Below, in pieces: positions 10,837 through 45,600 of a stretch of DNA of 64,000 nucleotides. The position numbers and the translations under genes were made by a program. The notes below the pieces were generated by a model. The model was not told the DNA's origin. It made no database searches and was given only the letters and a program-made list of their open reading frames with translations. Position 1 is the first letter of the stretch, and every line of letters begins with the position of its first letter. Source of the stretch: Acanthaster planci. Taxonomy: Eukaryota. The DNA lies in contig NW_019091360.1 of assembly GCF_001949145.1 (NCBI RefSeq), forward strand, positions 2,788,864 to 2,852,863, given 5' to 3'.

Positions 10837-12313
10837 ATGGACTCCACACCAGACACTGGTCACCAGCTGGCAGACGTCCGGCTGAACTCGGCAACAACGC
10901 TGGAGATGGAGACATCCGGAGAGATACCTTACATGGATGCGGACGAGCCCGCTCCATCTCCCCCCTCCTCCCGATCGGGAACCCTAAAGGCCCGGAAAAG
11001 CTCCAAGGGGCGGAGCCCTAAATGCTCCCCACTGATGGTGAACAAGGAGAGCAGCATCCCCATTGTCAAGAAGGAGGCAGAGAAGGTCATGGAGATGTTC
11101 TTGAAGAGGCGGAGCATGAGCATGAACGATGCCATCCTGCAGAAGGAATTCTTCAGTCAGGAACGGAGGAGAAAGAAAGACCGCGCCCCACGGAATAACA
11201 CAGTCTCGATTTGTTCCACAATGAGCACAGACTCCAGCGACTACCGCAACAGTGGAGATTTTGAGGAGGCCACCCTGACAAGAAGCAAGGGGAGCTTCAG
11301 CAGAGCTTTGGAGAACTCTGTTTTGCCGGGAGATGTGCGGCGCGAACAGTCATCGGCAGACGACGAACTGTCATCGTCTGATCATGAAATGGACAAGGAG
11401 AAGTCTCGTTCAGCTCCGTCCACCCTTCGCTTGCAGGTTGGTCGGTTGACCGAGGAAGAACTTGAAAAACTGCGGGAAGCAGGCAATGGCTATGCCCAGC
11501 ATGACAAAGATGGCGTTAAGAAAGATGTGAAGAAGAAGGACTTGCCCAAAAGGCGGAAAAGCCTGCTGGACAAAGCCAAGCAAATCATTCGCTCTCCTAG
11601 CATGCAGAGGAAGCATGACCACTCAGAGGAGAAAGAGGCCCCAGTGGGTCCCGATGAAACCTCGGCCAGTCGATCTAAAGTCCACCAAGAGATGAAGCGT
11701 ACTGGCTTTGCCAACAGACTGAAAAGGACATTCAAACGGGACTCCCGCAAAAGCTCTCTGAAGAGTTGCGAGTCAGAGACAAGGACTCCCACCCCACCAA
11801 ACTCGGCCTCATCAGAATCCAAAGATGGGAGCAAAACAAGGCGATGGCCGAGTTTCCAGCTCAAGAGGAAGCCGCGGAAGAGTGCGTCGACCCCCACCGA
11901 CGATAGCCTGGCCGGGGCTACGCCCTCAGACACAACATCCAATGCTGACTGGGCCTCGGTCAGCGACTACGACCACACCCAGAGCCTGACGGAGTTTGAC
12001 CGGAGGAAGCTCCTAAAGGAGATCCACAATGGCGTCCAGTTGCGCCATGCCCAGCAGGCTACCGGCAGTGATTCTCAGCTCCACGCCCAGAGGGCGGAGA
12101 AGTTACCATCTCGGAGAAGCGCCCCAGAGCCAGAGCACTGTGGGTTGGGCTCTACGGGCACCCAGACCCCCTCCTCAGTCCTTTCCAGCTCCCAGGAGTC
12201 CGGAATGTCATCTGACTGGTCGTCTGGAGGATCAGGCCAGAGGACACAACGGCCCAGGAGCCTGAACTTGACGAGATCAAGGCGGCACGAACGAGCAAGG
12301 CAGGGACTTAATG
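10837..12313 (+). CDS. Bcl-2-family gene coding exon 1 (BH4-like helix, Ser/Lys/Arg-rich disordered region, WH2-like motif)
   Basis: 494-codon GC-rich ORF. Upstream acceptor TTTTGTACAG ends at 10747. Inferred phase-1 GC donor AATG|GCAAGT. Confidence 0.85.
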
Positions 12314-15300
12314 GCAAGTGAACATTTCAAATAATAGTTAAAAATAGAACAATGCATCCAAATCAACAAGGGACATTCCCCCGCAAAATCTCATCACACG
12401 AACATTGCTCATGACATGCTGCAAGAAAAAAATTCCGTAGGGCACAGAATGGGAAACAGTCCCACAGTCATTAAAATTTTGTTATTTCAGTCAATTTTGA
12501 TTTCTCTAGAAATATTTTTACTCTGTTTTGGAGAGAAATGCCCTTCCCAGTATGTTTAAAGAGACAATCATGAGAATCCTGGGAATTTATGTAAAAGAGA
12601 GGATCAGGTTCTGGCATGTGAGAAAAATTTACATACTCGTGCAAGGTAAAGATTCACTTCAGAAAGGGAAGAAAAACCAACACAGTAAAATTACTATTAA
12701 AGATGATGGCCCTCAAAAATACCAAACTGATCTCCATATTAACTAAACTTTTACATGTATGTGTTTAGTGTGGGTATTTGAGAGTTTGACTCCTGCAGTG
12801 GCATCTTGTTTTTACCGTCCTTGTTTTTGATTCACCCATTGTCGTTTTGCTCAGATGTCTTCAAGTTGGACAGGATTACCCCGGGCCATGTCCGCCGTGA
12901 CACGGACACGCGACAGCCCGTCATGCCCACTGCCCAGGATGACATTGACCCGGACCTGGAAACGGATGGGATCAATGACACTGAGGATGACATGAGCGGT
13001 AGGTCTCAATGGAACATTCTTCTTTGGTAATTTACAAGTGTAATATGATTCGTTGGTGGATAGTCAATACTATTGCCCTAAGGTATTTGACCTTGACAAA
13101 CTAGTCCCCGGTATAGGCCAAGGAAATAGTTTGTCAACTTACATGTACCAATTGGGGCTAATATCAACTATTTGCCCGAACTATACTTTAGGAGTGCAAA
13201 AAAACTGTGATTGAAATATGTGTGCTGCCATCTTTTAATATTCAGCTGGGAGGATGTTTTGACGTGGACAGTAACCCTTTGCGACTCTTCCCCAGTTGCT
13301 TTTGAAAGTGCACACCGAGTCTGTGAGGCATACAGTGTACATGTATTCAACATCTGCGTGGATCATGGCCAACGTGCCTGATAAACGGGTCATTCCACAA
13401 GGGTAGGGCACAATTTGTGATGGTGTCAGTTGTGACATCGGTTCTGTAAAAATGAACAGCTATTTTCCTGCATGCGGATTCCAAATTGACATTGTTATAC
13501 ATCTTGCAAGGCTGAATACAGAGGTGGGTGTTATTTTTACAGAGTACATGACCCTCTAATGACCCACTCTGCAGGTCATGACAGACGGTAAAAGTTACCC
13601 ATGCAACAAGGACACCATCACAAATTGTGCCCCAACCTCATGGAATGACCCAAACGGCAATGTACCAGTTGATACATGTGATGGTGAATGGACCCTTTAG
13701 GCCCCGAGCGACATCATTGTCAATGAATATGGCGCCCTCTCTTGTTTGTGCATGGAATCTATTGCTTTATATGCAGTGGTATGCATAAGTGGCATACGGT
13801 AGCACCACTCACCAATAGAATATTGGAATAAAGAATGTGGGAGTTACTGTGATATCTTTGATTTTGTGGCTCCTGTTGTAAGTTCGAGTTTTTTTCTCTT
13901 GACCAAAGAAGAATATCCTCATTTTTAAGTATTTTTGTTGTTCCCCACAGAATAGACAGATTATTGTGTAGGCTTGTGTGTAATTATGATCAGACATTTT
14001 GTCTAGCAAAGGTACTAATTTCACTGAACACGTGCCAAGGCTGCTTAGAATCTGCACTCTTTTTTTTGGCATGGAGCTTTTTAATTTAGATGTATTCTAA
14101 CTGGGGAATGGTATATCTAAAGTCTTTAAACTGAAAAGAAAAAAAGCCTTGATATCTAAATGTACATGTTCATGTATGTCTGTTTGCAGCATAGTGTCCA
14201 GATTTTCATAGAGCACTGATGAGTTTTTCAGGAAAAAAAACAAACTACTATCTGTGCTGGTAGACATGACGCACAAGGTGGAAAAATGTGTACAAAATAC
14301 CTGTGAAATCTGTGTATAAATTTAAACCTGTCAAAGAAGCACAGGATGATGTAATCAAGACGCCATTGATTGTGGAACTTGATGAAGTAGAGGTAGACAA
14401 AAAAAAAATCCGGAAAAAAGAAAGGCTTTGCTGTAACCACACGAAGTCAAAACTTCAGCCGCCTTTGTTTCCCCCGGCAGTTGATGGGGGCAACGAAGAT
14501 GCGACTTTGCAGAGGCCATCCAAGCGGGAGAGGGAGGAATTCTACAAGCGGATCGCCGACCGGCTGGCCCAGATTGGAGACCGGTTTGTGACAGAGTACC
14601 AGGAGGGTCTGGTCGGGGAAGATGAACAGGCCAGGCCCGTTTCCAGACAGCGAGCGAAGGAGCTGGGAGCATCAGCTGTTCCTATGGAAACGAGCGCGGC
14701 GGCAGCCACCGGAAGTACAGGTGAAGTTTACCGACTGCTCTGAATTTTTTGTTGAAAGAATCCATGCGGTGAAGTTTTCACCTTTTGTTTTGCACCTTCC
14801 TACTCTTCTGCAGTGTACCTTACAATAAGGTACACTCAGGAGTTGGCATCCTGTTAAGGTTGACAATAAAGAAAAGTCCAAGCTTCCCTCGACAACTGAG
14901 GGCGCTGTTACTGCAGTGTCAATCAGTGAAGATGCTCTTTGTTTTTACAGTTCAAATTATGAACCCAGAATTGCTCGAAAAAAAACGTCCGAGCAAGTGT
15001 TGCTTGTTGGCTTATTTTCAAATTACTTACACAACAATAAATCACTAAAGAAAAGGAAATTTAGGATGGCAAAAATGAAACAAAAAGTGAATTCTTGTGT
15101 GCCCACATCAATGCAATATTGAGATTTTTCTCCTTGGCCGACATCACAATTGTGCTTATTAATATTTAAATTTGCATTTGCATTGAAAACCCAAAATGAA
15201 AATAAGGTTAATTGAAACACAGGAGAAAAAATGCCCAAGTCAGTTTTTAGCTAAATGTTCAAAATGTTAAGCACAATATCACCCCTCATTCGGAATGCAC

Positions 15301-18300
15301 TTCGTGTTATTACTTAGCAACAGAATTGCTAAAATTCTCGTATACTAGTGGCGTGTGGGATTGCAAGGACAGTTTGTGTCTACATGTACCGTACATGTAC
15401 ACTTACTAAGATTACATTGCTGAGAAATGAATTTCAACTTCTAAAGCAAAACTGTGTTTTTCCCCTTTTTTTGGGGGGGAGGCTTTGAAATCTTTTCTGC
15501 CTTCCTGGTCAGTGTGAGTCTTTATGATTTGACAATGTTTGTCTTTATTGTGGTTCATCTTGTGGATAATTTTTCAGAATCGGATGATAGACTGTTTGAT
15601 AGCATCGGTGGAAGGATACGGGACCATGTGGATGGTTACCGAGTGGTAAGTAATATCAGCCAATCACAGTGAGGCCTGGTTACCGAGCAGCCCTGTCAAA
15701 CCGTTCAAATACATCGCCAGTGATGTTTCTTTGATCGTGTGGAACGTAGGCATCCACAGATTTTCCAGTGGCAAATATGGTCGTCCTGCTTTTAATTCTT
15801 GGTCCAGATGTGTACTGTGTACTCTAAGCAGCAACTAGAGCAAGTCACCTTCCCAATGCCCACCTTCCCCAGCTTCTATCAAATTGCACATGAAATGCTA
15901 AATCACATGCTTCTGAAGCTGAACATGCAGACTTCAAAACTGTCATTTGATACTAACAAGTTTGGAATACAGGTCTCTTTTTTGTATCAAAGGATATGTT
16001 ACAAGATTAATCATACATGTACATATATATGTTTGTAAGTTTAATAATAATTGATTGTTAAAAGAACTGACAATTTTTGAGTGTTTGTGCACATTTGCCA
16101 AAAATGTACGACACTATTTGCTGGATGCTATATTTTTTATTTCATTTTGGATTTGAGTTTGATTAAATTCATAGACTGATTTTTCTCAACATTTCAGTTG
16201 TCTTTTTAAAATCAGAAACCCAATTTATTTGTTAATTGATTATATTACTTTGATTTGATTTGCTTTTTGTGTTGCAATCCCTTCCTTAGATTGATCTGAT
16301 TGTTTTTGAGCTTCTTAGATTAAGTGGCAATCCAATACAATCGCCTTTGTCACCAGATGTAGATATCACCTCGGTACGTTTCAATAAGGTTTCTCATGCC
16401 ATAACGTGGTTCTTACGTGCTTCATCAAGTAGTTAGCTCATGCACTTTGGACACCCACTAACATGAGGTACTTACATTGACACGCCATTTCCACAATTCA
16501 GCTGCAGTCCATCAATTCCTGGTGGTCAGTGTTACTTTCCTTGAGTCCCATATGAGGCAGCTCAGGTTGGATTCCCACCTTGCACACTACGCAGATGGAA
16601 TTAGCACAGTGACACTGCCCTTTACATTCAATGTGATCAAGGTTCAAATCCTGTCACCTTGTGAAATTGATTCGTCCGCCAATTAACTCTGCAGGCTGTT
16701 TTGCCATCATGCCTCCAAAACGGACATATCCTTCATCATCACCTTCTATCAAAGTTTTTGGCTAAAATCTTAAGGTTAAAATTGGCTTAGATATATGCAT
16801 CAGTTCATCAGCACTGTAAGAAATGATAAGAAAAGATACTTAGCCAGTAAGAAATCAAATTTCCGCTGATGAAGTTACTCCTTCCTGACAGTGTATAGAG
16901 TGTTAGGGCAGTTCTGACATGTTAGTGCTTTGCTCACTTTCCACCTTTGCTAAACCCGAGGTTGAAGTCTTCTCTGAAGCACTGTGAGGATTTAGTCAGT
17001 AATTTTGTTAATGTAATCAGCTTTTTCAATTTTCTCTCTAAACAATTGCAGTGAAATCAGTTATATTATCATATTTAGTTTTTCCAAAATAATTGACACT
17101 CCTTGTAGTTAGGGAACCAAGTTTCCTGTTGAATTTTTTCAATCCTCAGCTTCAGTTTCAAATGTCATTTTTGAGAAAGCAAAATCAGAAAACATAAAGT
17201 TGTCTAATCCAAGACCCAAATTTGTTGTATTTTTATTTGGTTCCAACTGTGAATGTTTGAGAAATGAGTCTGTTTGAAAATGGACATGAAGCAGGATAAT
17301 GCAAAGCTGAGTTAAGAATATGGCCCGAGACTGTCTTTGCTTGATGCCATGGTCACAGAAGACAGGATTCTATGCAGACATCTTCATTCCTAACACCCCA
17401 TAACTGATCCTGCGTCATGCGCACACATTCATTCATGCATTTTGCCCTTCCATGAAAACCCGCACAGATGTAGCATATACGTATTTGTGCTGAAGCACAA
17501 GAGGCAAGGGGTGACATTGACAAGCAGGAGTTTGGTATAGCTTGAATTTTCTGTTCACAACGAGTAATCACAAACATTGGTGTACGCTGTCAGAATGCAC
17601 AGTGTACAAGTAACTCTGTGACAAGAATGACTTTGTAACTGAGCAAGTCTTGTTGAGATAGCTAACATGCTGGCTTAACCCATGGAATGTGGGACATCTA
17701 AATTTCGTTAACAATTTCCACACTAATTGTTCCTATTTATAATTCTCTCCCTTCCTCTTGGCCTTACCCGCGCCCTGTATACACACTGCAATTGACTCCA
17801 TTTATGTTGTATCGGTTGGTCTTTGAACCCCCCCTCCCCACACCAAAAACCCCCTCCCAAACATTTCATTTTACCACCGATATCGCTGCCACAAAATGCT
17901 TTCTTCATCCTCTTGTCACTTTGTTGACACTCTCCATTCCCCATTCCATCCTTCTCCATCCCTGCTCGCTCTCTTGAAATTCCCTGATTGTTTTGTCGTA
18001 ATTTTGAAATATTTTGAAAAAAAAATACCCAAACCAACAACCCACTCCCTGATGCTACCCCCCGCGGCCCTCCTCGCCGCTTCACAGCGCTACAACCAAC
18101 GCCTCCACCCCTTCTCGCCACAGTCAATCCTGTCAGTGGTCCGCGACCACACCTACGCCGTCTTCCGCGACACCATGCAGTCGCTTATTGGCCAGGACAC
18201 GGGCTTTGAGCAGCTGGCCTTGGTCTTCAAGTTCACCAAGCTGGCCATGAAGATCGCCCAGCACTATGGCTCCCGGGCCAACGAAATCAAGGACAACAGC

Positions 18301-18818
18301 CTACGGTACATCGGAGATCGCTTTGCTGCCTGGCTGGACAGCCAAGGGGGCTGGGTAAGGACAAAACTGAATGAGACTCTGTCAATGGTAGCCCTCATAG
18401 AAAGTGAATGACTCACAATATACTTTATCTGCCAAGTAGCATGATGCCCAGTGCTGCAGTTAACGTTGTAAGGTTACACCATCCTCAATCCCTCAAAATC
18501 CTAAAATCCAAGTTGTGGGATTTGAAAGATCTGGGTACTATTATGTCAAGTGAATTTCGCATGAAGACTCACTCGTATACTATGCATAAGTGTGATGTGA
18601 TTGATTTTGGAACTTTCTGCAGTCTAGCATTTTGTGCACCAGTGATATTGTGTTTTAATCGATCCAGAAAGATTCTCATGTGAAATGTTGTTTCCACTGA
18701 TATTCAAGTCTTGTTCCCATTTTCTTCCTCTGACATCCTGCAGGGAGCTGTGGTGTATTCCAGTGACTCAGAAGAAGAAGGGGAACAGTCTCATCATGGG
18801 GAATCGGAAATTGATTAA
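10837..18818 (+). CDS. Bcl-2-family protein, BCL2L12/BCL2L14(Bcl-G)/BID-like, ~744 aa, 6 coding exons (whole gene span)
   Basis: join(10837-12313,12855-12998,14481-14720,15578-15645,18124-18354,18744-18818) = 2235 nt with all splice phases compatible. BH3 IADRLAQIGDRF; BH2 FAAWLDSQGGW followed by the phase-0 intron typical of the Bcl-2 family; no C-terminal TM helix; ends ESEID*. Confidence 0.85.
12855..12998 (+). CDS. Bcl-2-family gene exon 2 (contains LETD|G)
   Basis: TTTTGCTCAG acceptor, G|GTAGGT donor, phase 1-1, open frame DVFKLDRITPG...DLETDGINDTEDDMS. Confidence 0.8.
13387..13651 (+). mobile_element. MITE family 1 (~265 bp, ~41-bp TIR GGGTCATTCCA..., 4-bp TSD AAAC)
   Basis: TIRs GGGTCATTCCACAAGGGTAGGGCACAATTTGTGATGGTGTC / GACACCATCACAAATTGTGCCCCAACCTCATGGAATGACCC; further copies at 7050 and 50337. 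Confidence 0.8.
14481..14720 (+). CDS. Bcl-2-family gene exon 3 (BH3 motif)
   Basis: CCCCGGCAG acceptor, ACAG|GTGAAG donor; EEFYKRIADRLAQIGDRFVTEY matches LxxxGD. Confidence 0.88.
15578..15645 (+). CDS. Bcl-2-family gene exon 4 (68 nt)
   Basis: TTTTTCAG acceptor and GTG|GTAAGT donor. This phase 1-0 exon is needed to join exon 3 to exon 5. Reads ESDDRLFDSIGGRIRDHVDGYRV. Confidence 0.75.
18124..18354 (+). CDS. Bcl-2-family gene exon 5 (core helices, BH2)
   Basis: CCACAG acceptor; SILSVVRDHTYAVFRDTM...FEQLALVFKFT...YIGDRFAAWLDSQGGW|GTAAGG. Confidence 0.9.
18744..18818 (+). CDS. Bcl-2-family gene terminal exon 6
   Basis: CCTGCAG acceptor, phase 0, GAVVYSSDSEEEGEQSHHGESEID*. Confidence 0.75.
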   Translation, partial: GAVVYSSDSEEEGEQSHHGESEID

Positions 18819-21326: not shown

Positions 21327-21864
21327 GATTAAGTCAAGCAAAGAATATTTGGTGTTGAGTATTCTCATTCATTGCTGCTTGGTGACTGCAAGCCTTTTTC
21401 AAAACATCTCATGATGCTTTGACGACGGTTTATTCTCGGCATAAAGATTTCTGATCTTTTGGCTAATCTACCAGTCAGATCTATTGAGGGGGGCACTAAC
21501 TTTTTTGATGTTGTTGGAACTTTGACAAACTTTGAGATCTCTTGCTCCAGGACAGTGAGTAATACTCCAAAGCACCTGTTTCTTCTTGTTGATTGAGTCA
21601 AGCAAAGAATATTTGGTGTTGAGTATTCTCATTCATTGCTGCTTGGTGACTGCAAGCCTTTTTCAAAACATCTCATGATGCTTTGACGACGGTTTATTCT
21701 CGGCATAAAGATTTCTGATCTTTTGGCTAATCTACCAGTCAGATCTATTGAGGGGGGCACTAACTTTTTTGATGTTGTTGGAACTTTGACAAACTTTGAG
21801 ATCTCTTGCTCCAGGACAGTGAGTAATACTCCAAAGCACCTGTTTCTTCTTGTTGATTGAGTCA
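21327..21864. repeat. Near-perfect 264-bp direct tandem duplication
   Basis: Identical ORF peptides at 21365-21601 and 21629-21883; period 264; GATTRAGTCA at 21327, 21591 and 21855. Confidence 0.95.
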
Positions 21865-27790: not shown

Positions 27791-28028
27791 TGAGCAGTTG
27801 GTATTGTTCTCAACCTTACCACATTAAAGATGTAGTTTTTTGGCATAGAGTAGATGTGAATTTTTATATTGAAGACTTGTGAAATTGAATTTGGATATCA
27901 GTCTCGAAGATTTCTTGATCAATATAAGTTATTGCAGAGGAGAACTACATGTTCCTAAAGAAACTGTCTTTAGATTTGATAGGAACTGTAGCATGTTCCT
28001 ATTAAATTGTTTCATATTTCAGTTAGAG

Positions 28029-28230
28029 ATGGGGACTCGCAGCAACACCCAGCTGAAAATCCAGAAATTAGACACAAAACTGAAGAGCAACCTGCACAGG
28101 CACAAGACTGACGAGCTGGACGAAGTGGATTGGTTGGTTGTCAGGCGAGGACAACCATTCCAGCTTGACCTGACCCTGAACCGCCCATACAACAACAGCA
28201 CTGATGTCCTTGAATTTGACTTTCAAACAG
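28029..28230 (+). CDS. TGM: TGM-A coding exon 1
   Basis: [10 protein letters not shown]...[11 protein letters not shown]...DFQT G|GTATGC. Confidence 0.88.
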
Positions 28231-31200
28231 GTATGCAAAGACCGAGCAATATTTTTAAAGTTCACAAACCTCTTTGCAGGCATAAAATTAATAGACTTAG
28301 TAGTGTCTGCTGTGTTACCACACTTTGGGGAACAAAAATGTGATATTTTGTGTAGAAATCTTCCAGATAATGACATCTGAATGTATGGTATCTCCTTTTC
28401 AATCTCAAATAAAATGTATTTATTCAGGTTTTAGAAGCACAAATATATTTTCTCTTTCAACTTGAGTTTAAAGTCGGATTCATGCATAATAATCAACTGA
28501 ATTTTATTTGTCCAATTGATTTTCTTCAGGTAAAATGGCACTGAATTCCTTTGCCCCTGCATATTTTGCACCTTTTTTCAGAAAACATTTCAATGCTTTG
28601 TAAGTTTTTCACAAAATGTGTCTCTTTTGTGATTTCTCAGGAAAAACCAAGAATTTCCGGAGGGGGACGCACGTCGTTGTGTCAATCGGTGAGCAAGACC
28701 TGCCTCTAGCCAGAGGATGGAAGGTGCAAGTTGATGAAGAGAAGAACAACACACTCACTGTGTCCATCGCTGCCTCTCCTGATGCACCGGTGGGAAAGTA
28801 TTCCCTTGCTGTGCGAACTGTAGTGAAGTCAAGTGAGCCAGTTTTTGTTCCTTGAAAAGAAATTAGAGCAATCTGTTAATGCCAAAGAATGATTTGGAAA
28901 GTGCACCATGCCAAATTTTTTTTGTTGCCATGCAAAATACAGAGAAAATGTTACAATTTTTCTGGGGGGGGCATGCCCAAGTAGAAGTCCGCCTCTCCCC
29001 CCATGTCTTATATGTACATGTACACAATCAGTGTACAAGCCACAATTCACTTGCTTTCAGTGCCCCTCTTGAAAGAAAAAAAGGGTGAACCCCGGATGGC
29101 CCTGCAGAACTTTTTTCACCCCAGTTTCACCCCTCGGTGACTCAAACCTGAGATGTTTCATTCTCTTCTCTTAATTGTCAGTCAAAGCAGAGGACTCATT
29201 CAAGGAGCCTCGCCCAATTTATGTCCTCTTTAATGCCTGGTGTGAGGAGGATCAAGTCTACCTGGTACGGGAAGAAGAACGAAGGGAGTACGTGCTAAAT
29301 GAGAAGGGTTACATCTGGTACGGCAACTCAAATCAAATTGGCAGGATGGCCTGGGGTTTCAACCAGTTTGAAAAGGGTGTCTTTGAGGCAGTTATGTACC
29401 TACTAGAAACTCATGTAAGTGTCAGAGATAGACCCAGGTTGTATTTGAAAATTATGTGCTGATGCACTTAGGGCTGCGAAAGGTGCACCCTTAACCAAAT
29501 ATCTGGTGATACATAATCGATATGGGATCCATAGTATTTTTATTTCCTGAAGCCTTTGCAAGTACCTACACAACCCTTCTTAAGGGAGAAACAATTTTAT
29601 TTGATCTTATTTTATTGTTAACATGCATATTTAAATAATACAGTGGACTCTGCTTTGTTCATAATACAGTAGAAATGAATACACTATAATAAATAACGTG
29701 GGGTCCACACAAAATTCATTCATTCTGGGAGTCATTCGGTAGCCGGTGTCGTTCCCAGTTCCATCCTGTTAAATGTGCAGCAGCCTGCTTGCCTCTTTTT
29801 TTTGGCCCATCTCATGGTTGGGGGAAGAGTAGGGAGAATTCCGCCCCCAAGAAAAAAACTTTGTCGTCCCCCTCCCCGAACACTCATCAAATTTGAACTC
29901 AATCTGACTTACTGTTTTGTTGTTACGGTCATTTGAAGTTGAAGGCCTCGTGCTTGTTCACTCATGTGCATCAAGCATGTCAATGGAAAATGTGTACATT
30001 TTTGGCTGACCTGCCTCAGCAAAATGGCAATTTTCACTAAATCAAGTTTAATAAAGTAACAAGATATTACTTTAAGAAATGAAGATTCAACGTGTAGAAA
30101 TGCACTGTGGCGATATCAGGTACCGTTTTCTGGCTCTTCTAGGATTTAGTAGTGTAATGTGACCTGTTGCAATTGTTAGTCAATAACAAATGGAATGTTT
30201 GACCTTGTCAATTGTTTTGCGTAGAAACAAATTCCAAATCACTCTGCCTTGTTGCTGACTTTTGTCACATATCATCAACATTCATCAACAATCGCAGATG
30301 AATTTTGATCATTATTTGCAATGAAGTATAGTGCTAATAGAATTTGTGTTAATTCTGGCAACTTTTTTGAATGTAGTTATGTGAATTCAAGTCGCAATCA
30401 ATTACAGTAGGATTGTTTGACTTTATAAAAGGTGGGTGAATATGAACGTGGAAGCTCTGTCCTGGTCTCTCGTTCCATGTCAGCTGCTGTGAATTCCCAG
30501 GATGATAATGGAGTCTTGACTGGACGTTGGGGAGGCAACTACAAGCCTCATGTGAATCCATCCTTCTGGACTGGCAGCCAGCGCATTTTGGAGGTAGATG
30601 AAAAATAATCATTACAATGAAACTGTTGATTCTGATGCAGTCATCGCTGTACATGTGGATTGCAATGTGACTGTTAGTAGTGAAAGCCTGTGTATGACCA
30701 GCAAAAAAAATTGCGGAGTACTTCTGATGTCATTTAAGGGCATTGCTCAGGGCTTTCTCAGAAGTCTTGAAAAACAAAGACAAGTTGCTCAATGGATCAC
30801 CATGATCATGCAAAATACTAGTGCAGATGTGTCATTGGCCCCTGTGTAGTCTTGATTCAAGACGTTCTTTTGCGATACAGACTTAAAATACCTGCTGCCA
30901 GCTCCCTCTGCAAGCACAAATCATACACATAGCTCTCTGCACATGCAGTCCACAAACCCGACTGACTTACGTAAAGAGGTGCCAGTTGCCCAGTGCAGTA
31001 ATGGAGCACATGTGGCGGGCACTAACTAGTTGACCGCATACATTGGTGACAGATCTGACTTACCACACAAACCTGACTTACCCACAAACCGCTCCCCGTC
31101 ATGATTGAATGCACTGCCGGTGAAAGCCCTCTATTGGTGGTTTGTATGCCGTGCACCAAGACTACGATCCTGAACAAACTAGTTGGAACACCATGTGGGA

Positions 31201-34200
31201 AGCGCGGTGAAAAGATCCCCCTCGCTACCATTCAATGTTGCAGTCATTTACTGGACCAAGATTAAGCCGAGCTTACCCAATGAGAAACAACATTGACAGG
31301 GGAGAGGGGGAGGCATGTTCCAATGAGATTTGTCCAGGATTGTAGCCCTTGTGGTATTATTGTAAGAGAGGTCTTGAGGGTAGGCCAGCTTGGATATTAA
31401 TGGAACAAAGTCATTTTCTTTTTCAATAAACATCAGTATCAAGGCAGCTAGGTGGTCTTTTTAAAGTTACCTCTGGCAAAAGAGTGTAACATACATGTAC
31501 ATCTAGGTATATATACAAAAGCATTTGTTGCAAAAAGTTGACAAGAAGCCTTCAACTTTCTCACCTCTCCAACAGAAAACTATTTACTGGCCTGTTGCTT
31601 TGACACTGTTTTGATTTAATTAATTAAAAAAAGAGCTGTTTTTCAGCTGTGTCCTGATGGATCTTTGTGAAGTAGCATGGCATATTTGTGAAGACATCTG
31701 TTTGAGTCTGTCTGTGAAGTTTCAATTCAATCCGACAGAGTTTTGATTTCAAGGTCAGTTATAGTTTACACTCTAACATTTGTCAGCATGTGAACTGGGC
31801 GCATGCTCATGGCATAGGAAAATGTCACAATCTGTAGGCAGCCTTTCTTGAATAAATGGGCAGTATTTAAGAACAGCGCATACGTGTATGATTTACACAA
31901 AATTGCTGTCAAATCACTGTAAGACATCGTTATGACCCCCCTCCCAAGCTTTTTCATGTTGCAAAGTCCAGCTGGGAGGATTCATAAAAAAAGCCATGCC
32001 TTCTTGTTTGCTGTTGTTTCCCGAGTTCACTTGGTCAGTTTTTATCTCTTTCAAACTATACAGGAGCATTTCAAGACCAAAAATCCTGTCCGTTATGGCC
32101 AGTGCTGGGTGTTCTCTGGAGTCCTCACCACTGTGCTTCGATGTCTTGGCATTCCTACCAGGAGCGTCACCAACTTTGATTCAGCCCATGACACCAATGA
32201 CAGCCTGACCATTGTAAGTTTAACACTGGGCTACTTTAATTTAGCCACTATTTAAGGCCCCACACAAGAAATCAAATCCAAGTATATACACCTTTGTGTG
32301 TCATTTAACCCCATTTTCAATTCAAATGGTGTATGAGAGCTTTTTGTTTTATATGCTAATAAAACTTTACATATTCCCGACCACAATTATACCATGCCCA
32401 AAATTAGATATATGGACACCATTACTTTCTGGATCTTTTGTTATTTTGCACTCCCAAATTTTGTTTTTTATATGCCAGTTTTTTGTTTCAGTTCCTGAGA
32501 ATAGGTCAGTTAAAGATTTGTCAAAAATACTTTCAGTGAGCAAATTTTGGATGGATAGTTTGAGTAGAAAACTGATTTTTTATAAACAGTGTCTCCCCGG
32601 AATGAAATCACAGTTCACTCATTTTTTTGGAAAAACATGGAAAGTTTTAAGTGTTTCAAAATAACCAGTGAAGATTTGGTGTGGTAATGCAGCCAACATT
32701 TTATCTTATTTCACCATCTCATTTCCCCAATGTCCGCTACAGGATGTGTATTTTTGATGAGAACAATGAAATAGTAAATTCCATGGAACACGAAATCTGG
32801 AATTTCCATGTCTGGAATGAAGCCTGGATGAGCCGGCCAGACCTCCCACCAGGCTACGGTGGATGGCAAGCCGTTGATGCTACACCCCAAGAAACCAGTG
32901 GCCGTATGTATACTATGTGATCCTTTAGTCCAACTCTGTAAAGGACTGCCGTCTACTAGTTGTGGTATATCTTAAACAGTCAGTAGTTTTGGCCAACGTG
33001 AAATATTACACCTCACCCGGGTCGTGTTTGTTGTTGAGTAATACAGCCTGTAAAGTGGTTGAAAGTGGTGTTCTTCTTTTTTCATGTTGTGAAGCAGTTG
33101 CAATTATTTGTAAATGTAGAAAAGTTTGTCCCCTTTTCAGAAGCAGGATTTAAAAGTTATTTTTTTTCTGTCTAATTTTAAATGCGAGTTTAAAGTTTAG
33201 GGAAATATTTTACAGCCCCTTATATCCTGTATCAGTCTTTTGACTGATTACTCTGTGCCTACTGGCATCCAATTTCTGTAGTTTTCATTTCCAACTGAAC
33301 ATATTTTATATGTTGACCTGAGGAAAAGAAATCCTTTTCCGGATTGTCATTCACCCTAAAAACAAATGATTTTCAGGCTGCAGGGAAAAAGGAAATGTTA
33401 AAGTTGTTACTGTCAGTGATCAAATGCAGAAATTTTGCTGACTAAAATCTCTAATTTTCTTTGAAATCAATTGTTTTGTGATGTTGTGGTGTTTTACTAG
33501 GTATCTTCCGCTGTGGTCCGTGCCCTGTTAGTGCCATCAAACAGGGCCAAGTCTACTATCCCTATGACACAAAATTTGTCTTTGCAGAAGTCAATGCAGA
33601 CATCGTTCACCTGCGGGTGAGTGAAAGTCTGTGTACTGTACCAGATAAGTTTGGTAGTCATAAGTTTCAGTCTTTGTCTCTCGGGGGCAAATCTGTGTAC
33701 ATTTTTCAGATTTTGTTGTAGTTGAGAAATATTCTTTGATCAAGTGTTCCTTTTTATAAATGCAAATTTTGTAACCATTGGTGGTTGTGGAATGCGTGTG
33801 ACCCTGGTGATGATGATGTTGAAATGCACAAATCTCTTGAGTAATGAGTCACTAATTTTTGTGACTCAAGTTGAGTCATTGTAATGCAATAACTCGAGTT
33901 GAGCCATAAGGCAAAAATCTTGAGTCGAGTCGAGTGTTTAGCTTGAGTCAATTTGAGTCACCAGTATTTGAATGCAAAACAAAATTTGTAAAAGGGGAGA
34001 AAATCATTTAAAAAATTTACCTGTGGGTTTCTACATATACATGTGGTCACATCACATCGAACTCTTACTAATCGTTGCACATAACAGGAACATAAAGTGG
34101 CGCTATAACCCGCTGCAAATATTTTTTTGCGAGGAAGTTTGCTTTCACGTTTCAGACTCGAGTCATTTAACTTTCACCTGAGAGTTGAGACAGGTGTTGT

Positions 34201-37200
34201 GATAAGGGACTGGAATCAAGTCAAGTCATTTGCTTGCAGTGACTGTAGTGGAGTTGAGTCATTTACCCTGTTGGGACTCAAGTCGAGTCCTCAAAAATTA
34301 TGACATGAGTCGTTATAACTCTGCATCTGCACGACAATGTTAAACTTAAATTTTTCTGCATATATATATACATGTATATATACTGCAGTTTCCATGTGAA
34401 ACAAATGAAAGTATTATGTGAATCCTTTTCTGAGCACACTTATTAATAAGTAATTTCTTCTTATGTTGACAAGTCTTTTGAGGGATCATGTTCTGTCATT
34501 CCAGGTCAAAAGAGACGGTAAACTTCAAGTGATAAAATTGAATAAAACGCATGTGGGGAAGAAGATAAGCACAAAAGCATTGGGCTCAAAAGACAGGCAG
34601 GATTTAACATCAGAGTACAAGTACTCTGAAGGTAAGCATGGTTTCAAAAGCCATGAACAAATTACCATTTATCTTTAAACACTTGTACCAATACCTTCTA
34701 AACCTGTGAATATTTATTTACTGATCTGAGAAATCAAAAGTGCCATTTGTCCACCTGCTCTTCAGGCTCCCAGGCCGAAAGAGCTGCTGTCAAAATTGCA
34801 GCGTCGTATGGAGCCACACCCTGGATTTATGACTCTCCCAAGTATGCAGAGGATGTACATGTTAAGCTTGGAGTCTCAGACTTGAACAAATACGTCGGAG
34901 AGGATTTCAGCCTCAAAGTTCCTCTGGCCAACAAAAGCCAAGAAAAGAGATCGGTTTCAATCACGCTCATCTTGCAAGTGGTGCATTACTACGGTATGGC
35001 CAAAGTTCTGCTGAACTTACTTTTGTTAAGTTGCATCCAATAACACTGCATTCCATTTTATGGGCACAGCTTAATTTTGTTTAATCCCTTCTTCGTGTGA
35101 TGTCAATCAATAACCATGATCTGGCAAACATTTCTACTCTGCTAATGTGATGAAGTCAGCTTAGGTTAGTTAACAAAGAAATATTGGTGCTTTTAGCTTT
35201 TCACAGGAAAACCCCAAATGTGTGAAGTGACAAATCTGACTCTTTAGTTGGTAAAATGAAACCTTAGTAAAATTATGGTAAAGCACTCCTGTACTTGTTT
35301 TTTTTTGTTCAGGTGTGTTGGCTGCCAAAATCAAGAAGATGGATAAGAAGTTCCAACTTGGACCTGGTCAAAGTGATCAGATCACTATGAGTGTTAATGC
35401 TGATGAGTATCTGGACAAGATGGTGGACCAGTCTGCATTCAAAGTCTTCCTCCTCGGCCATGTTGATGTAATTTATCATATTGATTACGTTTACCCACAG
35501 GTGTACCTTTAGTAGCATTAATACATTCACCCAAGTCTCTGTTCACTCCCCCAATCATTTAGACCAGGTCACCCCCCATCATTGCTATAATTAACTCAAG
35601 GCAAAAGTTAGTTATTCCAAGTTTATCTGAATCAATAGTAGGAGGGCCTGACGTTTTGATCCTACAAGAATCTTTTTCAGTTTTTATGTTATGGCACTTT
35701 TTTCTGACATTTTGTTTTCGAGATTTGATCTATGCCATTGTTGCAACACATATTTCACTTGCTTTCCTCCTGTTGTCCCCATTACAATGTGCTGATACTC
35801 CAATTTTAAAAAGTACCATGTAATTTAAACAGACAAGTTTACTTTTTCCATTCCGATAGAGTAATAATTGTATTTTACCATAAATAAACAGCTTGAGCTG
35901 CACTTAAGCCCGAGTACTAAGAACCAGCAGTATAAACAGGTCCTTGCACACTCACAGATTCACAACCCTGAGTACGCTTTACAAGATGAGTAACAAACAC
36001 AGAAAGGAAAATGAAGCGGAAACAAAAATCAGAGAAGACTCATGGTCGTTTAAATTTGCTCCCCATCAGGAGACTGGCCAGGCCTTTGTAGAGGAGGAAA
36101 ACTTCCGTCTGCGCACCCCTGACCTTGACGTCAAGCTGTTGCGTCCAGCAGCCAAAGACGTGCGTGTCGGCATGCCTGTTGAAGTGGAGCTGAGTCTGCG
36201 AAATCCCCTGAAGAAGAAGAAGCTGACAGCCTGTGAGGTCACCGTGGAAGGGGCAGGGCTCTTGCCTCCCCGTGTCATGAAGCAGAAGTTAGTTTAGCCT
36301 GGCAGTTGGGATTTGTACATGTATCTCAAAAACATAGGGTTGGGGGTTTGAATCCAGCAGCCTGCTACATGTTGTGACCTTGGGCAAGTCACTTTACTCC
36401 CATTTTGCCTCTTTCTGTCTTGAAGTATATAAATGGGTCGCTGTGAGGGCTGGTATGGTTGTTATGTTTGATTAGCTTTCTGCACCTGAAATGGCAGCCT
36501 TGATCTGTAAACTTCCCCGGGAGCTGAGATGGTTTAGGAATGTTTCTTCTGGGTTCAGTTTGGAGGGATAATGATGGATACATCCGCTTTGTAAGTGTCC
36601 ATTATTATCACTATTGTTGTTACTCTTCGTGGCTAGCATCGGAGGTTTTCCCTAGCTTGCTCAAATGTTCATCTTAAGGACAGTTGTCATCCATTGTGCT
36701 GTCCACCAAGATTTATAGGCACCTTGTTTCTGCTCACTTTTACAGGATTTCAGCTGGCAAAATTTTGAATAATGGCCAAAGTTTATTTGCTCATTTTGCA
36801 TATGCTTTAACATTCAGTACTGGTTAAGAATTTTTTTCTCACCATTGCTCATATTTCTGTGTAGAAGTATTTTCGCGAATGCATTTGCCATCTTACTTCT
36901 GGAACTGTGCCTGGGGAAACTTGTCAACCCCTCCTCCCAAAACATTCAATTATTAAAAGGTGCAAAAAAAGAAAAGCAAAGCAAAAGGAATGAAGAAAGG
37001 GAAAATGTAATCATGAAAATGAAAATCACCAATTAGCTTGAAAATACCTTGGAATTGGCCCACCTCCAATGCAAACATTTTGCCAGTTTGCTGCTGATGA
37101 GTTCTTTGCTTCCTGTGTAAAAATTCCTTGCGATTTGATGATGTGCAGTATGAATAAAACCTGAGCACTCAATTTGTGTATTCGGTCAGAGTCACTGTAC

Positions 37201-37494
37201 CTGCTATCGTATTAAATATTCTGCTCCTTTGATGGTTTTAGTAACTACAAAACCCGCCATAATGTGATCACATTAATCATCTCACTGCTTCTCATATGTG
37301 GTGTCTGTTTGTGTAGTTCTCAGTTTTCTGTGAAATGTCATTACAGGGATGTTGCGGTGGGCCAGACGCTCACTCTGAAGGTTGACTTCAAACCAAGGAA
37401 AGCTGGTGAACGCACTCTCATTGCCACATTTGAATCGGATCAACTCGCCCAGGTGACCGGGGAGCTGGATTTGAAAGTCCTGAAAGCCAAGTAA
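28029..37494 (+). CDS. TGM: Protein-glutamine gamma-glutamyltransferase (transglutaminase) paralog A, ~693 aa if a +1 frameshift at 32751-32755 is corrected (possible pseudogene or assembly error)
   Basis: 12 GT-AG exons: 28029-28230,28641-28832,29191-29414,30432-30593,32064-32213,32743-32903,33501-33616,34505-34631,34766-34993,35313-35467,36070-36287,37347-37494. Total 2083 nt = 3n+1. Motifs [52 protein letters not shown]. Confidence 0.93.
28641..28832 (+). CDS. TGM: TGM-A exon 2
   Basis: [12 protein letters not shown]...[15 protein letters not shown] boundaries, phase 1-1. Confidence 0.88.
29191..29414 (+). CDS. TGM: TGM-A exon 3
   Basis: [16 protein letters not shown]...[13 protein letters not shown]...WGFNQFE; CAT|GTAAGT donor. 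Confidence 0.9.
30432..30593 (+). CDS. TGM: TGM-A exon 4 (not in the ORF track)
   Basis: [54 protein letters not shown], phase 0-0. Confidence 0.9.
32064..32213 (+). CDS. TGM: TGM-A exon 5 (catalytic Cys)
   Basis: [36 protein letters not shown]. Confidence 0.95.
32743..32903 (+). CDS. TGM: TGM-A exon 6 (catalytic His and Asp; frameshift near 5' end)
   Basis: [33 protein letters not shown]; an extra T in TATTTTTGA gives an in-frame TGA at 32755. Confidence 0.9.
33501..33616 (+). CDS. TGM: TGM-A exon 7
   Basis: [35 protein letters not shown]. Confidence 0.92.
33830..34325. repeat. Degenerate element rich in GACTCGAGTC/TTGAGTCA subrepeats (TGM-A intron 7)
   Basis: Many dispersed GAGTCA/CTCGAG palindromic units; not seen in the matching TGM-B intron. 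Confidence 0.5.
34505..34631 (+). CDS. TGM: TGM-A exon 8
   Basis: [27 protein letters not shown]. Confidence 0.92.
34766..34993 (+). CDS. TGM: TGM-A exon 9
   Basis: GSQAERAAV...[19 protein letters not shown]...VHYYG. Confidence 0.9.
35313..35467 (+). CDS. TGM: TGM-A exon 10
   Basis: VLAAKIKK...[21 protein letters not shown]. Confidence 0.9.
36070..36287 (+). CDS. TGM: TGM-A exon 11
   Basis: [19 protein letters not shown]...[22 protein letters not shown]. Confidence 0.92.
36330..36620 (+). mobile_element. CORE/MIR-like SINE remnant
   Basis: B-box-like GGTTTGAATCC followed by TGTGACCTTGGGCAAGTCACTT (CORE-like hairpin) and an ATT-repeat tail. Confidence 0.5.
37347..37494 (+). CDS. TGM: TGM-A terminal exon 12
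   Basis: [48 protein letters not shown]. Confidence 0.92.
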
Positions 37495-38582
37495 TTCAGC
37501 TAGTGCCAAGACAACAGAGGGCGCTGTATCAGACACGTTCAGAAGTGATGAGATTTGATCAAACTAGTAGTTAACTCATAGTTAATGTGTTACAGATGGT
37601 GGTTGATTTTATAAGATTTAGTTTGATTTGAAGATGTAAAATGAAGTTATTTTTTGTTGAAGTAGGGTTTTCAAATCTTTGTTGCATCGCCATGTCCTGC
37701 CTTTGCCAGTTTAGTACCCCATTTTACTCTGGAGTTTTTACTTGAAAAACCCCAAATTTTCCATAAAATGCCAACCGACATACAGTTGACCCAAAGATTG
37801 AAAAATCTTCATTTAATTTGAACACTGTAGACCAGCAAGTGGTTTCAGGGTCAGAGATGAAGTTGAGATAACTAAAGTTGATTATGTCAGTCCTTTTCAT
37901 GAAATCTGGGGGACAGGCTGTCTGCTCAATGTGGTTGAAGCAACCGTTGGTAACCAGGGATCCCACCAGCTGTCATAAGCTGGTCTCCACTTTCCAATTA
38001 GTTCTAACTTTGTTGACTAATACATGTTCAAAAAACTTAAAGCAGTTAGATGGGAAACTGTAGATCTCCATGGACGATGATCGAGCCAAATAAAAGTACG
38101 AGGGGGGATCTAAAGACACAAGTTCAGTTTGGTTTTGCTAAGCCTCTGCTAATAGGCACTTCCAGGTCATTCTATATGTACCTTGAATGGCCATCATAAA
38201 ATTAGTACTGAGGCATAAGACAATCGGGCTTAATTTCAGAGTGCTGCTTAACAGCAAGAGGGTGTTTAAGCCTAAAGGGACTAGTTGCTGAAGTCACTAG
38301 CATAATCAAAGAAGTTCGGTGTAGTGTGTAGTCATATCCACATCATAAAATATCGCTTAGCAGCAATATGAGTTGATGTTGCAGTAAGCCCAAGTTTGGT
38401 TGTTTCATGAAAACTACTGTAGGCTGGTAGGTGGTTACATCACACGAATACAAACATGTAAATGAAAAGATGGAGGACACATGCATCAATGCACACCGCA
38501 TCCATATTTATGAACATAAATGGTAACACTTTCGACGTCTCTCTCCCCATCAACAACGCTGGCATTGAAAACAAGAATACAA

Positions 38583-41965: not shown

Positions 41966-42256
41966 TTCACCAAACTTTAAGAGGCAATATTTGAAGACTT
42001 CTTGCGAATTTGAATGTGAATTTGTATTGTTCATTGAAGCTTCAGCTTGAGAGGGAAACTACATGATCTAAATTCTTTTCAGAACTCACTCAAAAAAAAG
42101 AGATATATCCATATGGTGCTACCACAAACCTATCTAGTTTACTTGTTACCTCCACCATGAAAAGCTTCAAATCTCATCTAAAGGAAATGTCTTTAAATGT
42201 TTATATTATGACCTAGCACTTTTGTAAATTTCTTATGATTCAATTTGTGAATAGAG

Positions 42257-42638
42257 ATGGGGACTGCATCAAGCAGACGGGCTGCAGGGAGTACTGGTCC
42301 TTCCTCAGATGTTGTTTGGATTGGCCCAAGAAATTATGTGACCAGAATGGAGCCAAGACGCTACCATTTCTTTGATGGTGATGAGGCTCGTCGGCCCTCC
42401 CGTATTAACCCAGCCCTGGAGGAGAGGCGGACCCCAACACCGCCTCCCACCGATGCCCAGCTGAAGGTTGAGAACTGCAACTTGCAGCCAGCAAGCAACA
42501 AGTTCTTGCACTACACTGCTGAGCTGGACGAAGTGGATTGGTTAGTTGTCAGGCGAGGACAACCATTCCAGCTTGACCTGACCCTGAACCGCCCATATGA
42601 CAAGAGCACCGATGATATCAAATTTGACTTTCAGACAG
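42257..42638 (+). CDS. TGM: TGM-B coding exon 1
   Basis: MGTASSRR...[11 protein letters not shown]...DFQT G|GTATGC. Confidence 0.9.
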
Positions 42639-45600
42639 GTATGCAAAAATTAAACAATGTTTTAACATTGTTAACCTTAATCTTGGCATTAAAAGACTCA
42701 GTGTCTTGTTTGTTATGCTTTTAGGAAGAACAATTTGATTCTATGTAGAAATCTGTATATCTTCAAGTTGACATATCATAACTTTCTTCCTTTTGTGCAA
42801 AGCATTGGAAATAGCACTTCCTTATTTTCATCTCTCAAGTTGTGAGTTAGGATGCCTTTGACATTGTATTACAGCTAAAGTTGATGATGTACATTCGCGC
42901 CCAACAAAAGTCAGGGGTAATTTTGCATATTCCTGCAATCTATCCGTGACATTTTACCCGTCATCAAAATTTATCATTGTACATTTCCCCCATTGCGGCA
43001 GGAAGCACCAAGAATTTCCAGAAGGGAACACAGGTGCTGGTGTCTATTCGGGATCCACGCCCATCTTTAGCTGGAGGATGGAAGGCAGAAATCAAAGAGG
43101 AGAAGGAGAACACGCTGACGGTGTCCGTCACTGCATCTGCCAGTGCTCTAGTAGGAAAATACCACCTCACTGTGCGGACCACTGTCAAATCAGGTGAGGA
43201 AGAATTGAATTCTTCAGAAACCTTGGAGCAAACTCCTTTGGTCACTGCCAAAAAACCTTCAGGAAATTACAACACTGTGTCAATTTTTTCTGACTTGTGA
43301 AAATTGTAGGGGACTTAACACAGCTTTTCTCTTGGGTACATCGGGGAATCTGCCGGTATAACTCAAGCCCCTCCCCTCCCTCTTTAATTTGAAATTTTGA
43401 AATGTACACAGCCTATGCACTAGCCACAGTTAATTCAGTGCCCCCTTGAAAAAATGGATGCATCTGTGAGTGTCCCCCCCTGTTACACCACTCGGTGACT
43501 CAAACATTAGACGTTTCATTCTGTCCTCTTAATTATCTGTTGAAGCAGAGGACTCCAACCAACCCCAGAATCACTCATTCAAGGAACATCGTCCGATCTG
43601 TCTCCTCTTTAATGCCTGGTGTGAGGAGGATCAAGTCTACCTGGACAAGGAGGAGGAACGGAAGGAGTATGTGTTGAATGAGAGGGGTTACATCTGGTAC
43701 GGCAACTCAAGACAGCTGGGCAAGAGACCCTGGGGTTTCGACCAGTTTGAAAAGGGTGTCTTTGACGCGGTCATGTACCTACTAGAAACTCATGTAAGTG
43801 TCAAGGGTAGACCCAGTGAGTGGTTCAGAATTCTGTGGTGGGAAAAGAGTCAGGGCTGAGATGGGTACACTTTTAACCAAATACCTGATGGAAAGTTATG
43901 GGCACAGGATTCTTTTATTTTATTACCCAAATCTCTGCCAAAGATTTTGTTGCACAATTACTGAAAACTTGTTTTGCATTCCAAAAATACACTTGACTCC
44001 GCCTTATTACTGATTATTGTAAAAATAAACAATTTCTGATGAAACTTGATCATTGTTCTTAATGAAATGTAGTGTGTATAGAATTTGTGTTAATTCAACT
44101 AACATTTTGAATAAAGATATGGGAATTTAATTAGTAATCAATAAGAGTGGGATTGTTTGCTTTTTATGAAAGGTTGATCAGTATGAACGTGGAAGTTCTG
44201 TCCTGGTCTCTCGTTCCATGTCAGCTGCTGTGAATTCCCAGGATGATAATGGAGTCTTGAGTGGACGTTGGGATGGCAACTACAAGCCTCATGCTAGTCC
44301 ATCCTCGTGGTCAGGCAGCCAGCATATTCTTGAGGTTATATATAAATATGACATGGTTTTAGGGTGGATTGTCAATTATAGCTCCCTGAGGTATTAGATG
44401 TTGACAAACTAGGGGTATGTATTCATCAAGCACCATTTTTCTGAAAGTTTTGCTGGATACATTAGTTGAACTCAATTTTGTGTAACCTTTCTGCTAGAAC
44501 GATGTCTGAATGCTCTCAAAGTATTATTATATATATTACTATTATTATAGTATACTTATTATTATATGTAGTATAGTATTATTACTATATATATTATCTA
44601 TTGCCTCTAAAAATGATGAGGGCGGGTGTAGCACTAAACTGGAACGATTTTAAAATTTAGTACGGTGTCTGAATGTTTTTATCTATAATGCTTTCAGCTT
44701 TAGCAAGTGCAGTTGAGCAGACGTTCCAAGTTACCCTGAGAAACAGAGTAAAATCATATTGAGTTGAACTCCATTTTAAGTTTGTGACCACCGTGAAGTG
44801 ATGAGCAACCTTTTAAAGTTTCACAGATGTAGCTAAAACTTTTTCTGAACACAACTGAGGCAAAGAAGTTTGTCATTTTCCAATCCTACGAGAAGCTACA
44901 ATTGACTATCCACCAGAAATAAACCATACACCACGTACATATTTATTTTCCATTACAATTTCAGAGCCTAAACCTCATTGCCCTGAAAAATGGGCATTTG
45001 AGGCTGCAACCCTTCAAATATTGGTCATTCCAATACTGTCCACCTTCTATATGGAAGGTTTGACAACTATAAATACTACCCAGACAATATCACCACCACT
45101 TTTTTCTGAAGGAAACAGACCCCTCGATATAAATGTTATTTTCTCAGTGGACCACTCATCCAGTTGGTTTGTTGACAAGTTCATCTTTTCATAGTTTCAA
45201 CCTTATCTTAAACTATACAGGAGCACTTCAAGACCAAAAGTCCAGTTCGTTATGGCCAGTGCTGGGTGTTCTCTGGTGTCCTCACCACCGTGCTTCGATG
45301 TCTTGGCATTCCCGCCAGGAGTGTCACCAACTTTGCATCTGCCCATGACACCGACAACAGTCTGACCATTGTAAGTTTTGACTTTGGCTCCCTCTGTTGT
45401 AAGCTTTTGAGTTGGACAACTCTAACAACCCAGTTAAGTGACCTTTAAAGGGTATATCGAATATAAGTTTGAAATAACTATATGCCTATTTTAGAAATTG
45501 ACTTTTGTCACTCTCCATGGGCTATATTGCTCACTTTAGCACTTTTTATGAAATTTTAAAACCCCTGAAAATGCACCCTTGTGTCCCATTTAAAACTTTT

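Follow-up and report, generated by a model that had tools for sequence, protein, structure and literature searches.

The 64,000-nucleotide stretch of Acanthaster planci DNA analysed here (contig NW_019091360.1; hereafter the window, in whose positions all coordinates are given) contains LOC110985049, a transcribed gene of six exons on the forward strand (window 10837-18818). With a GC donor at 12313, the spliced frame is open and encodes 744 or 756 aa. The features of the gene are as follows (a slash within a motif marks a predicted or known scissile bond).

10837..12313, + strand: exon 1, residues 1-492, with the start codon, helix alpha1, and most of a long low-complexity linker; GC donor
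11056..11118, + strand: helix alpha1 (pseudo-BH4), residues 74-94, E..KVMEMFLKR
11401..11418, + strand: KSRSAP in the linker, a putative 14-3-3-like phospho-motif
12855..12998, + strand: exon 2, phase 1-1, holding the caspase-type site
12956..12970, + strand: LETD/G, predicted caspase site with P1 D530, based on starfish conservation and family enrichment
14481..14720, + strand: exon 3, phase 1-1, holding BH3-A
14522..14614, + strand: BH3-A helix, residues 555-585, with L569, G573, and D574
15578..15645, + strand: exon 4, with BH3-B, a second BH3-like helix that is degenerate in echinoderms (IRDHVD)
16290..16436, + strand: alternative exon (RefSeq isoforms X1 and X4), giving a 691-aa isoform without the core when translated through to its stop
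18088..18354, + strand: exon 5, with the alpha3-alpha7 core, a BH1 region without NWGR (GFEQL), and the first half of BH2
18744..18818, + strand: exon 6, with the remainder of BH2, an acidic tail ending in ESEID, and the stop

RNA support was taken from reads of four raw runs carrying the same species label. The joins 12313/12855 (16 reads), 12998/14481 (27 reads), and 18354/18744 (24 reads) were each present in all four runs, 14720/15578 was present in two (7 reads), and 15645/16290 was present in one (6 reads). The join between exons 4 and 5 is based on RefSeq isoforms X2 and X3 and was absent among the RNA joins listed for these runs. Intron 1 (12313-12855) is a GC-AG intron in phase 1, and the frame stays open with the GC donor alone; a GT donor five bases farther on (12318) was tried and rejected, given that it breaks the frame (15 stops) and that the RNA reads use the GC donor. 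Exon 5, which has a second acceptor at 18124, was 100% identical to isoform X2 (756 aa), and the sequence of this isoform agreed with the spliced gene model by inspection. Intron 2 also contains an inverted repeat (13387-13651; 41-nt arms, 183 nt apart) that is likely MITE-like and comes with numerous repeat-derived reads.

The site and BH3-A occur together in all five RefSeq isoforms of the gene. Isoforms with the Bcl-2 fold (744 to 772 aa) are anchorless, and in the 691- and 644-aa splice products (X4 and X5), alpha1, the site, and the two BH3 helices are retained and the core and BH2 are lost. Bcl-G likewise has short splice forms without the core, and by this analogy the X4 and X5 products may be BH3-only-like proteins reminiscent of short Bcl-G.

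The motif order in the protein is alpha1, linker, site, BH3-A, BH3-B, core, and BH2, with a mostly unstructured linker of ~460 aa that closes with LETD/G. The first-pass annotation, which had described only the site and the BH3, missed these surroundings (i.e., a multi-motif Bcl-2 protein with alpha1 upstream and the core and BH2 downstream). SRSAP is invariant across seven echinoderm proteins, and [RK][SA]x[ST]xP-type motifs follow alpha1 in many homologs (RSKTMP, KSKSAP, and RAKSLP; a tally without a chance control). We take KSRSAP to be a 14-3-3-type motif, reminiscent of that of BAD. A weak WH2-like helix was also seen in the linker (window 12007-12069; residues 391-411; pLDDT about 80); the WH2 match was under the cut-off (E, 0.004 to 0.008) in three of the seven echinoderm proteins, and the UniRef name of the Patiria ortholog is "WH2 domain-containing protein." The ESEID C terminus lies at window 18801-18815, and ends of the [ED][ILV][DE] type (SELD, SEID, or xEVD) were present in 26 of 42 long homologs. 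Such an end resembles ligands of TPR clamps (the EEVD end of Hsp70/90) or the end of a caspase product, and it could be a docking signal that replaces a membrane tail.

Helix alpha1 had a pLDDT of 86 to 95 in an AlphaFold model, and model residues 73 to 78 are where the alignments to the BAK, Bcl-xL, and Bfk structures start. The KVMEMFL of alpha1 agrees partially with the ECIxNxLxxxFL given in PMC8814693, in the terminal hydrophobic-xxx-FL alone. Pfam Bcl-2 matched the exon 5 region (E, 1.2e-5) and, under the cut-off, residues 643-732 (E, 1.3e-4). BH2 reads WLDSQGGWG and is split by an intron directly after the TGG of GGW, an intron position described as a hallmark of the Bcl-2 family (PMC7527217). 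NWGR is absent (the BH1 region reads GFEQ), and no C-terminal transmembrane anchor was found (highest 19-residue hydropathy, 0.84). Across 40 homologs, the Arg of NWGR is missing in all, the Trp of BH1 is retained in 26, W725 of BH2 in 36, and G731 in all 40. Bid and Bfk, too, lack this Arg and have no canonical groove, a point of likeness; they also lack the BH1 Trp, a point of difference (PMC8814693).

These homologs come from a profile of seven echinoderm proteins, which recovered 108 representatives at an E value of ≤0.001. Forty-two of these were ≥370 aa, and counts on 40 exclude P0127 (a different, tail-anchored protein) and P0131 (which lacks BH3-A). The family covers echinoderms, hemichordates, amphioxus, molluscs, and a brachiopod, and all ten named members (from a sea urchin, a crinoid, two hemichordates, amphioxus, three bivalves, a gastropod, and Lingula) are annotated as uncharacterized or hypothetical. 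Identity among members is low even in the core (median, 34%). The BH3-A motif L-x-x-h-[GA]-D was found in 37 of 40 homologs, BH3-B was canonical-like in 26 of 40, and an iterated profile detected alpha1 in 32 of the 42 long sequences (iE of the best reversed control, 2.9). Vertebrate members were absent among the 108 representatives; a further profile search for vertebrate relatives, which was word limited and is not evidence of absence, returned 8 invertebrate-like hits only.

The first-pass annotation had read LETD/G, a second Asp-Gly, and a BID-like BH3 across the splice between exons 2 and 3. This reading was accurate in its letters: LETD/G, MSVD/G (straddling the 12998/14481 junction), and the BH3 are encoded as it wrote them, and its spacing of ~38 aa compares with a measured 39 residues from P1 D530 to the BH3-A Leu (L569). 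LE[TLA]D/G was present in four of four starfish species, with D-L-E-x-D-G 39 to 43 aa ahead of the BH3 Leu, and almost every flanking position within 519-548 varies among these species, so that D-L-E-x-D-G forms a conserved island. P0059, a fragment, likewise has LETDG. Both sea cucumbers retain DLExxG with Gln at P1, and sea-urchin-type proteins have VVRD/C or LVRD/G at the site; BH3-A is nearly unchanged in both groups. The expected conservation of LETD across orthologs thus held within starfish and gave way in the sea cucumbers, where the Asp is lost. The second Asp-Gly, proposed to parallel the second site of BID, is absent in all three other starfish species (Patiria and both Asterias), and that parallel is not supported. 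Myristoylation of the newly exposed Gly fared no better: GINDTE matches a loose pattern and the Asterias equivalent does not, and the pattern fits the Gly after the site in 8 of 22 family sites versus 33 of 152 other Gly residues.

A strict motif, [LIVD]ExD/[GSA], occurred 15 to 65 aa before BH3-A in 10 of the 40 homologs, compared with an expectation of 1.1 ± 1.0 (maximum, 6) in 2,000 composition-preserving shuffles of the same segment, and in 8 of 285 upstream tiles. In this 15- to 65-aa segment, which like the [VIT]DG motif was picked post hoc after the sequences had been viewed, [VIT]DG was present in 21 of 40 homologs (3.5 expected) and DG in 29 (16.4 expected), the 40 not being independent because they are related. 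EG, GD, and [VIT]EG controls had no enrichment in the same segment of the 40 homologs, and 16 of 40 had no [VIT]D[GS] there. An unwindowed histogram of [VIT]DG gave 22 occurrences 20 to 59 aa before BH3-A and 0 to 3 per other 20-aa bin up to 300. Taken with its retention in all four starfish species, the enrichment of the strict motif bears out the claim that a caspase-type site is present beyond chance. Residues P4 to P2 are in line with caspase preferences, and IETD, DEVD, and LEVD are among the family sites. The preference for caspase-8 that had been read from the starfish site is not supported for the family, in which P4 is Leu, Ile, or Val in 11 of 40 and Asp in 10 of 40. In a tree of the 42 long hits (without vertebrate rows), site-bearing members were dispersed among echinoderm, hemichordate, and amphioxus branches and branches that contain molluscs. 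Three mussel-like fragments (P0130, P0132, and P0154) have LEID/G and DE[VI]D/G before BH3-A, five or six residues apart; judged by their sequences, these would be an initiator-type site beside an executioner-type site.

The AlphaFold model was built on a 50-row alignment, and its mean pLDDT was only 57.7 because 408 residues fall under 50; confident helices span residues 74-94, 555-585 (BH3-A; pLDDT, 89 to 94), and 654-747, with a weaker helix at 622-648. Structural alignment over residues ~73-740 matched BAK (Z, 15.7; rmsd, 2.7; 134 aligned), Bcl-xL (Z, 15.5), and Bfk (Z, 14.2; rmsd, 3.7; 132 aligned). The model has the eight-helix Bcl-2 fold (Z of 14 to 15.7 versus BAK, Bcl-xL, BOK, and Bfk), with Z-scores that tie across Bcl-2 subfamilies. 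Given that the alignment runs from ~73 to ~740, the N-terminal helix is alpha1 and the site lies within an enormous alpha1-alpha2 linker, which separates alpha1 from the remainder of the fold; Bid and Bfk have their sites in the same place (PMC8814693). For domain-swapped poxviral folds (topology described in PMC7022251), the alignment begins where BH3-A does, at model residue 555/556. A model of residues 531-756 matched a Bcl-2 fold over 649-741 only, with neither BH3 helix in a Bcl-2 slot; its best row was Bfk (Z, 8.4; rmsd, 2.0; 83 aligned; 22% identity), within 1 of Bcl-xL and others. Foldseek gave no E value of ≤0.001 for either model, all top rows being Bcl-2 folds, and BID was not among the matches listed in the VIA-align tables, which does not count against it.

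Co-folding of BH3-A as a separate chain with alpha1 plus the core scored 0.83 (best control, 0.58), with ≥91% of contacts shared between runs and a partner pLDDT of ≥75. Of 78 solved pairs, 51 reached the co-fold mark, as did 2 of 108 mismatched pairs (39 of 65 and 2 of 126, respectively, for eukaryotes); the job is unlike the calibration set, and a pass may reflect likeness to solved Bcl-2 folds. BH3-A contacted alpha1 (84-91, including 84, 87, and 88), alpha5 (683-691), and BH2 (732-739), contacts that we read, by the register of the Bcl-2 sequence alignment, as the alpha2 position. BH3-A is thus predicted by the models, three runs with shared training data, to occupy the alpha2 slot, covered by alpha1, and to undock once alpha1 is removed.

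Family profiles and sequence alignments gave a different register, with BH3-B on the BH3 of Bcl-2 and BH3-A on its alpha1/BH4. The best family-profile scores went to Bcl-xL and to Bcl-2 (E of 4e-13 to Bcl-xL), and BID and Bfk were not among the best 60 of 152 and the best 60 of 161 matches. A profile weighted on BH3-A matched mouse BID over residues 75-185 (E, 3.7e-4), level with BAK and below Bcl-2. A search of exon 3 against PDB gave five hits, and the only BH3 peptides among them were those of BID (E, 1.2 to 1.6). Pfam BID (PF06393) matched residues 514-586 (loop plus BH3; E, 7e-4), under the cut-off. The description of the BH3 as BID-like therefore stands, and the PF06393 search that had been suggested did yield a match, which at 19.7 bits falls short of the gathering score of 25.

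Among known proteins, the proposed working mode is most like those of Bfk and BID, with Bcl-G and Bfk as nearer leads to relationship than BID. Bfk (BCL2L15; PDB 7CCL) shares the Bcl-2 fold, has BH3 and BH2, and lacks NWGR and a membrane tail, and it had the top sequence identity (21 to 22%) among the Bcl-2-fold structural matches. It also has a caspase site (DEVD41/S) in the alpha1-BH3 loop, cleavage of which frees its BH3 (PMC8814693). Differences are its length (about 163 aa versus about 750 aa in the starfish protein, with the ~460-aa linker and two BH3-like helices), the distance from the site to the BH3 Leu (16 versus 39 aa), the site itself (DEVD/S versus LETD/G), and Z-scores that are level with BOK, BAK, and Bcl-xL. 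BID, first reported in cartilaginous fish and considered to have arisen in jawed vertebrates (PMC8998228), shares the order of alpha1, caspase-site loop, and BH3, the character of BH3-A, and the P1' Gly. The starfish protein departs from BID in having BH2 and the BH2 intron, in its second BH3, and in the length of its linker, and the second site and myristoylation are not conserved in the family. The top Atlas leads were Bcl-G (BCL2L14)/BCL2L12; feature searches with the starfish and a scallop member both ranked Bcl-G first and Bfk clusters next (0.85 to 0.88; leads only). Bcl-G and BCL2L12 have a long basic linker, an extra helix, and an acidic C-terminal end. Bcl-G has BH3 and BH2 without BH1 (PMC10244440), and caspase activation was not found in the available portions of the literature on Bcl-G. 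Bcl-rambo (BCL2L13) differs in having a C-terminal membrane anchor, whereas the family described here is anchorless and has BH3-A and the site; the tail-anchored P0127, which matches the family core (probability, 96%), is by our guess a rambo. Rambo, Bcl-G, and Bfk are the proteins with which Bid is reported to cluster (PMC7527217), and corals are known to have rambo (PMC4715348); the BID-like clade is therefore not restricted to vertebrates.

LOC110985049 likely encodes a caspase-gated, tandem-BH3 invertebrate branch of this BID-like clade, with predicted cleavage and binding. On balance, we lean toward an anchorless Bcl-2 protein that likely belongs to the BID/Bfk/Bcl-G branch and in which a predicted caspase cut at LETD/G would free BH3-A and promote mitochondrial apoptosis. 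We regard as unlikely, but worth serious consideration, a Bcl-G-like nonapoptotic scaffold in which hydrophobic-x-x-[DQ]-G is a docking motif, BH3-A is structural, and action proceeds via linker motifs and the acidic C terminus. The DLExxG of sea cucumbers with Gln at P1, the conserved linker motifs and C-terminal ends, Bcl-G as first Atlas lead for starfish and scallop members (0.87 to 0.88, below 0.9 and thus leads only), and the doubt cast on Bcl-G's pro-apoptotic activity, its killing role having been undermined in mice (PMC10244440), all point this way; the specific enrichment of Asp at P1 with Gly at P1' (but not of EG or GD), the caspase-like P4 to P2 residues, and a solvent-side Asp of BH3-A retained in 37 of 40 homologs argue against it.

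The sequence register described above suits another reading, to which we give a small probability: BH3-A as an alpha1/BH4-like helix and BH3-B as alpha2, so that a cut would only remove a regulatory N-terminal region and expose no killer BH3. MCL-1 has caspase sites in its N-terminal region, and both the canonical-like BH3-B in the majority of homologs and the sites with Asp at P4, which suit executioner caspases, fit such trimming. However, a separate conserved alpha1 occupies the alpha1 slot in the full model and is touched by BH3-A in the co-fold model, the alpha1 slot is not filled by BH3-A in the truncated model, and the NWGR Arg and a membrane tail are absent. A direct invertebrate ortholog of BID, the identity proposed at first, we consider very improbable. 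It draws on the Pfam BID match over loop and BH3 (with 5 of 50 family members matching BID at an E value of 0.05), the BID peptides hit by exon 3, and the profile match to mouse BID; every BID score is nevertheless under the Pfam cut-off, and 44 of the 50 members match Pfam Bcl-2 instead. The tandem BH3 and 460-aa linker are unlike BID, the Atlas leads go to Bcl-G/Bfk, and the two genes downstream (see below) offer no synteny support. BH2 and its intron are present here, and BID is described as lacking BH2 (PMC8814693).

For the preferred reading, i.e., caspase-gated release of BH3-A, the conserved position of the site just before the BH3 means that a cut likely frees the helix, as happens with BID and Bfk of vertebrates. 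In those two proteins, alpha1 packs on alpha2, alpha5, and alpha6, and cleavage frees alpha2 (PMC8814693). In the uncut starfish protein, alpha1 would cover BH3-A, as the models predict; a caspase cut at D530 would then separate alpha1 from BH3-A, and upon release of alpha1 the C-terminal fragment could present BH3-A to pro-survival Bcl-2 proteins or to BAX/BAK. The freed BH3 would lead to mitochondrial apoptosis, with membrane targeting possibly via alpha5-alpha6 and without myristoylation. The acting caspase may be an initiator (e.g., caspase-8) in starfish, judging from LETD, and the DxVD of many relatives would fit executioners, as for Bfk.

Such a family hints that a protease-to-mitochondrion link is older than vertebrates. 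More tentatively, and with somewhat less than even confidence, we suggest that it is an undescribed bilaterian-wide, tandem-BH3, caspase-activated family that represents the ancestral state of vertebrate BID, Bfk, and Bcl-G, with an amplification step (in starfish, the caspase-8-type LETD/G) that predates the protostome-deuterostome split. Molluscs are reported to lack Apaf-1 (PMC10959488), and a death output there is therefore not assured. Echinoderms have been reported to show cytochrome-c-dependent caspase activation.

No description of the family was found in the literature searched, which did not cover subscription journals. A lophotrochozoan survey gives only BAX/BAK/BOK and pro-survival clades in its available portion (PMC11463336), and the Lingula and scallop accessions searched were absent from its supplement. 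A count for A. planci gave seven Bcl-2 proteins plus a BH3-only candidate of 350 aa (PMC8998228), among which the LOC110985049 protein may be included. The "uncharacterized" annotation, the sub-cut-off Pfam scores in starfish, and the 460 residues between alpha1 and the core would explain why the family was overlooked. Existing surveys leave a gap, namely, a caspase route to mitochondria in invertebrates with both caspase-8 and MOMP machinery, and the family is a concrete and cheap-to-test candidate for the caspase-to-mitochondrion link in echinoderms. Of the feature first noticed, the core (a conserved site together with a BH3 that is predicted to be buried) has gained support; the second site, myristoylation, identity with BID, and exclusivity for caspase-8 have not.

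Downstream of the gene, a perfect 264-nt tandem duplication (window 21327-21854; 100% identity) is either a recent event or an assembly artefact. Farther along lie two tandem transglutaminase genes on the + strand (window about 27873-37563 and 42251-51991), both with Pfam matches to the Transglut_N, core, and C domains.
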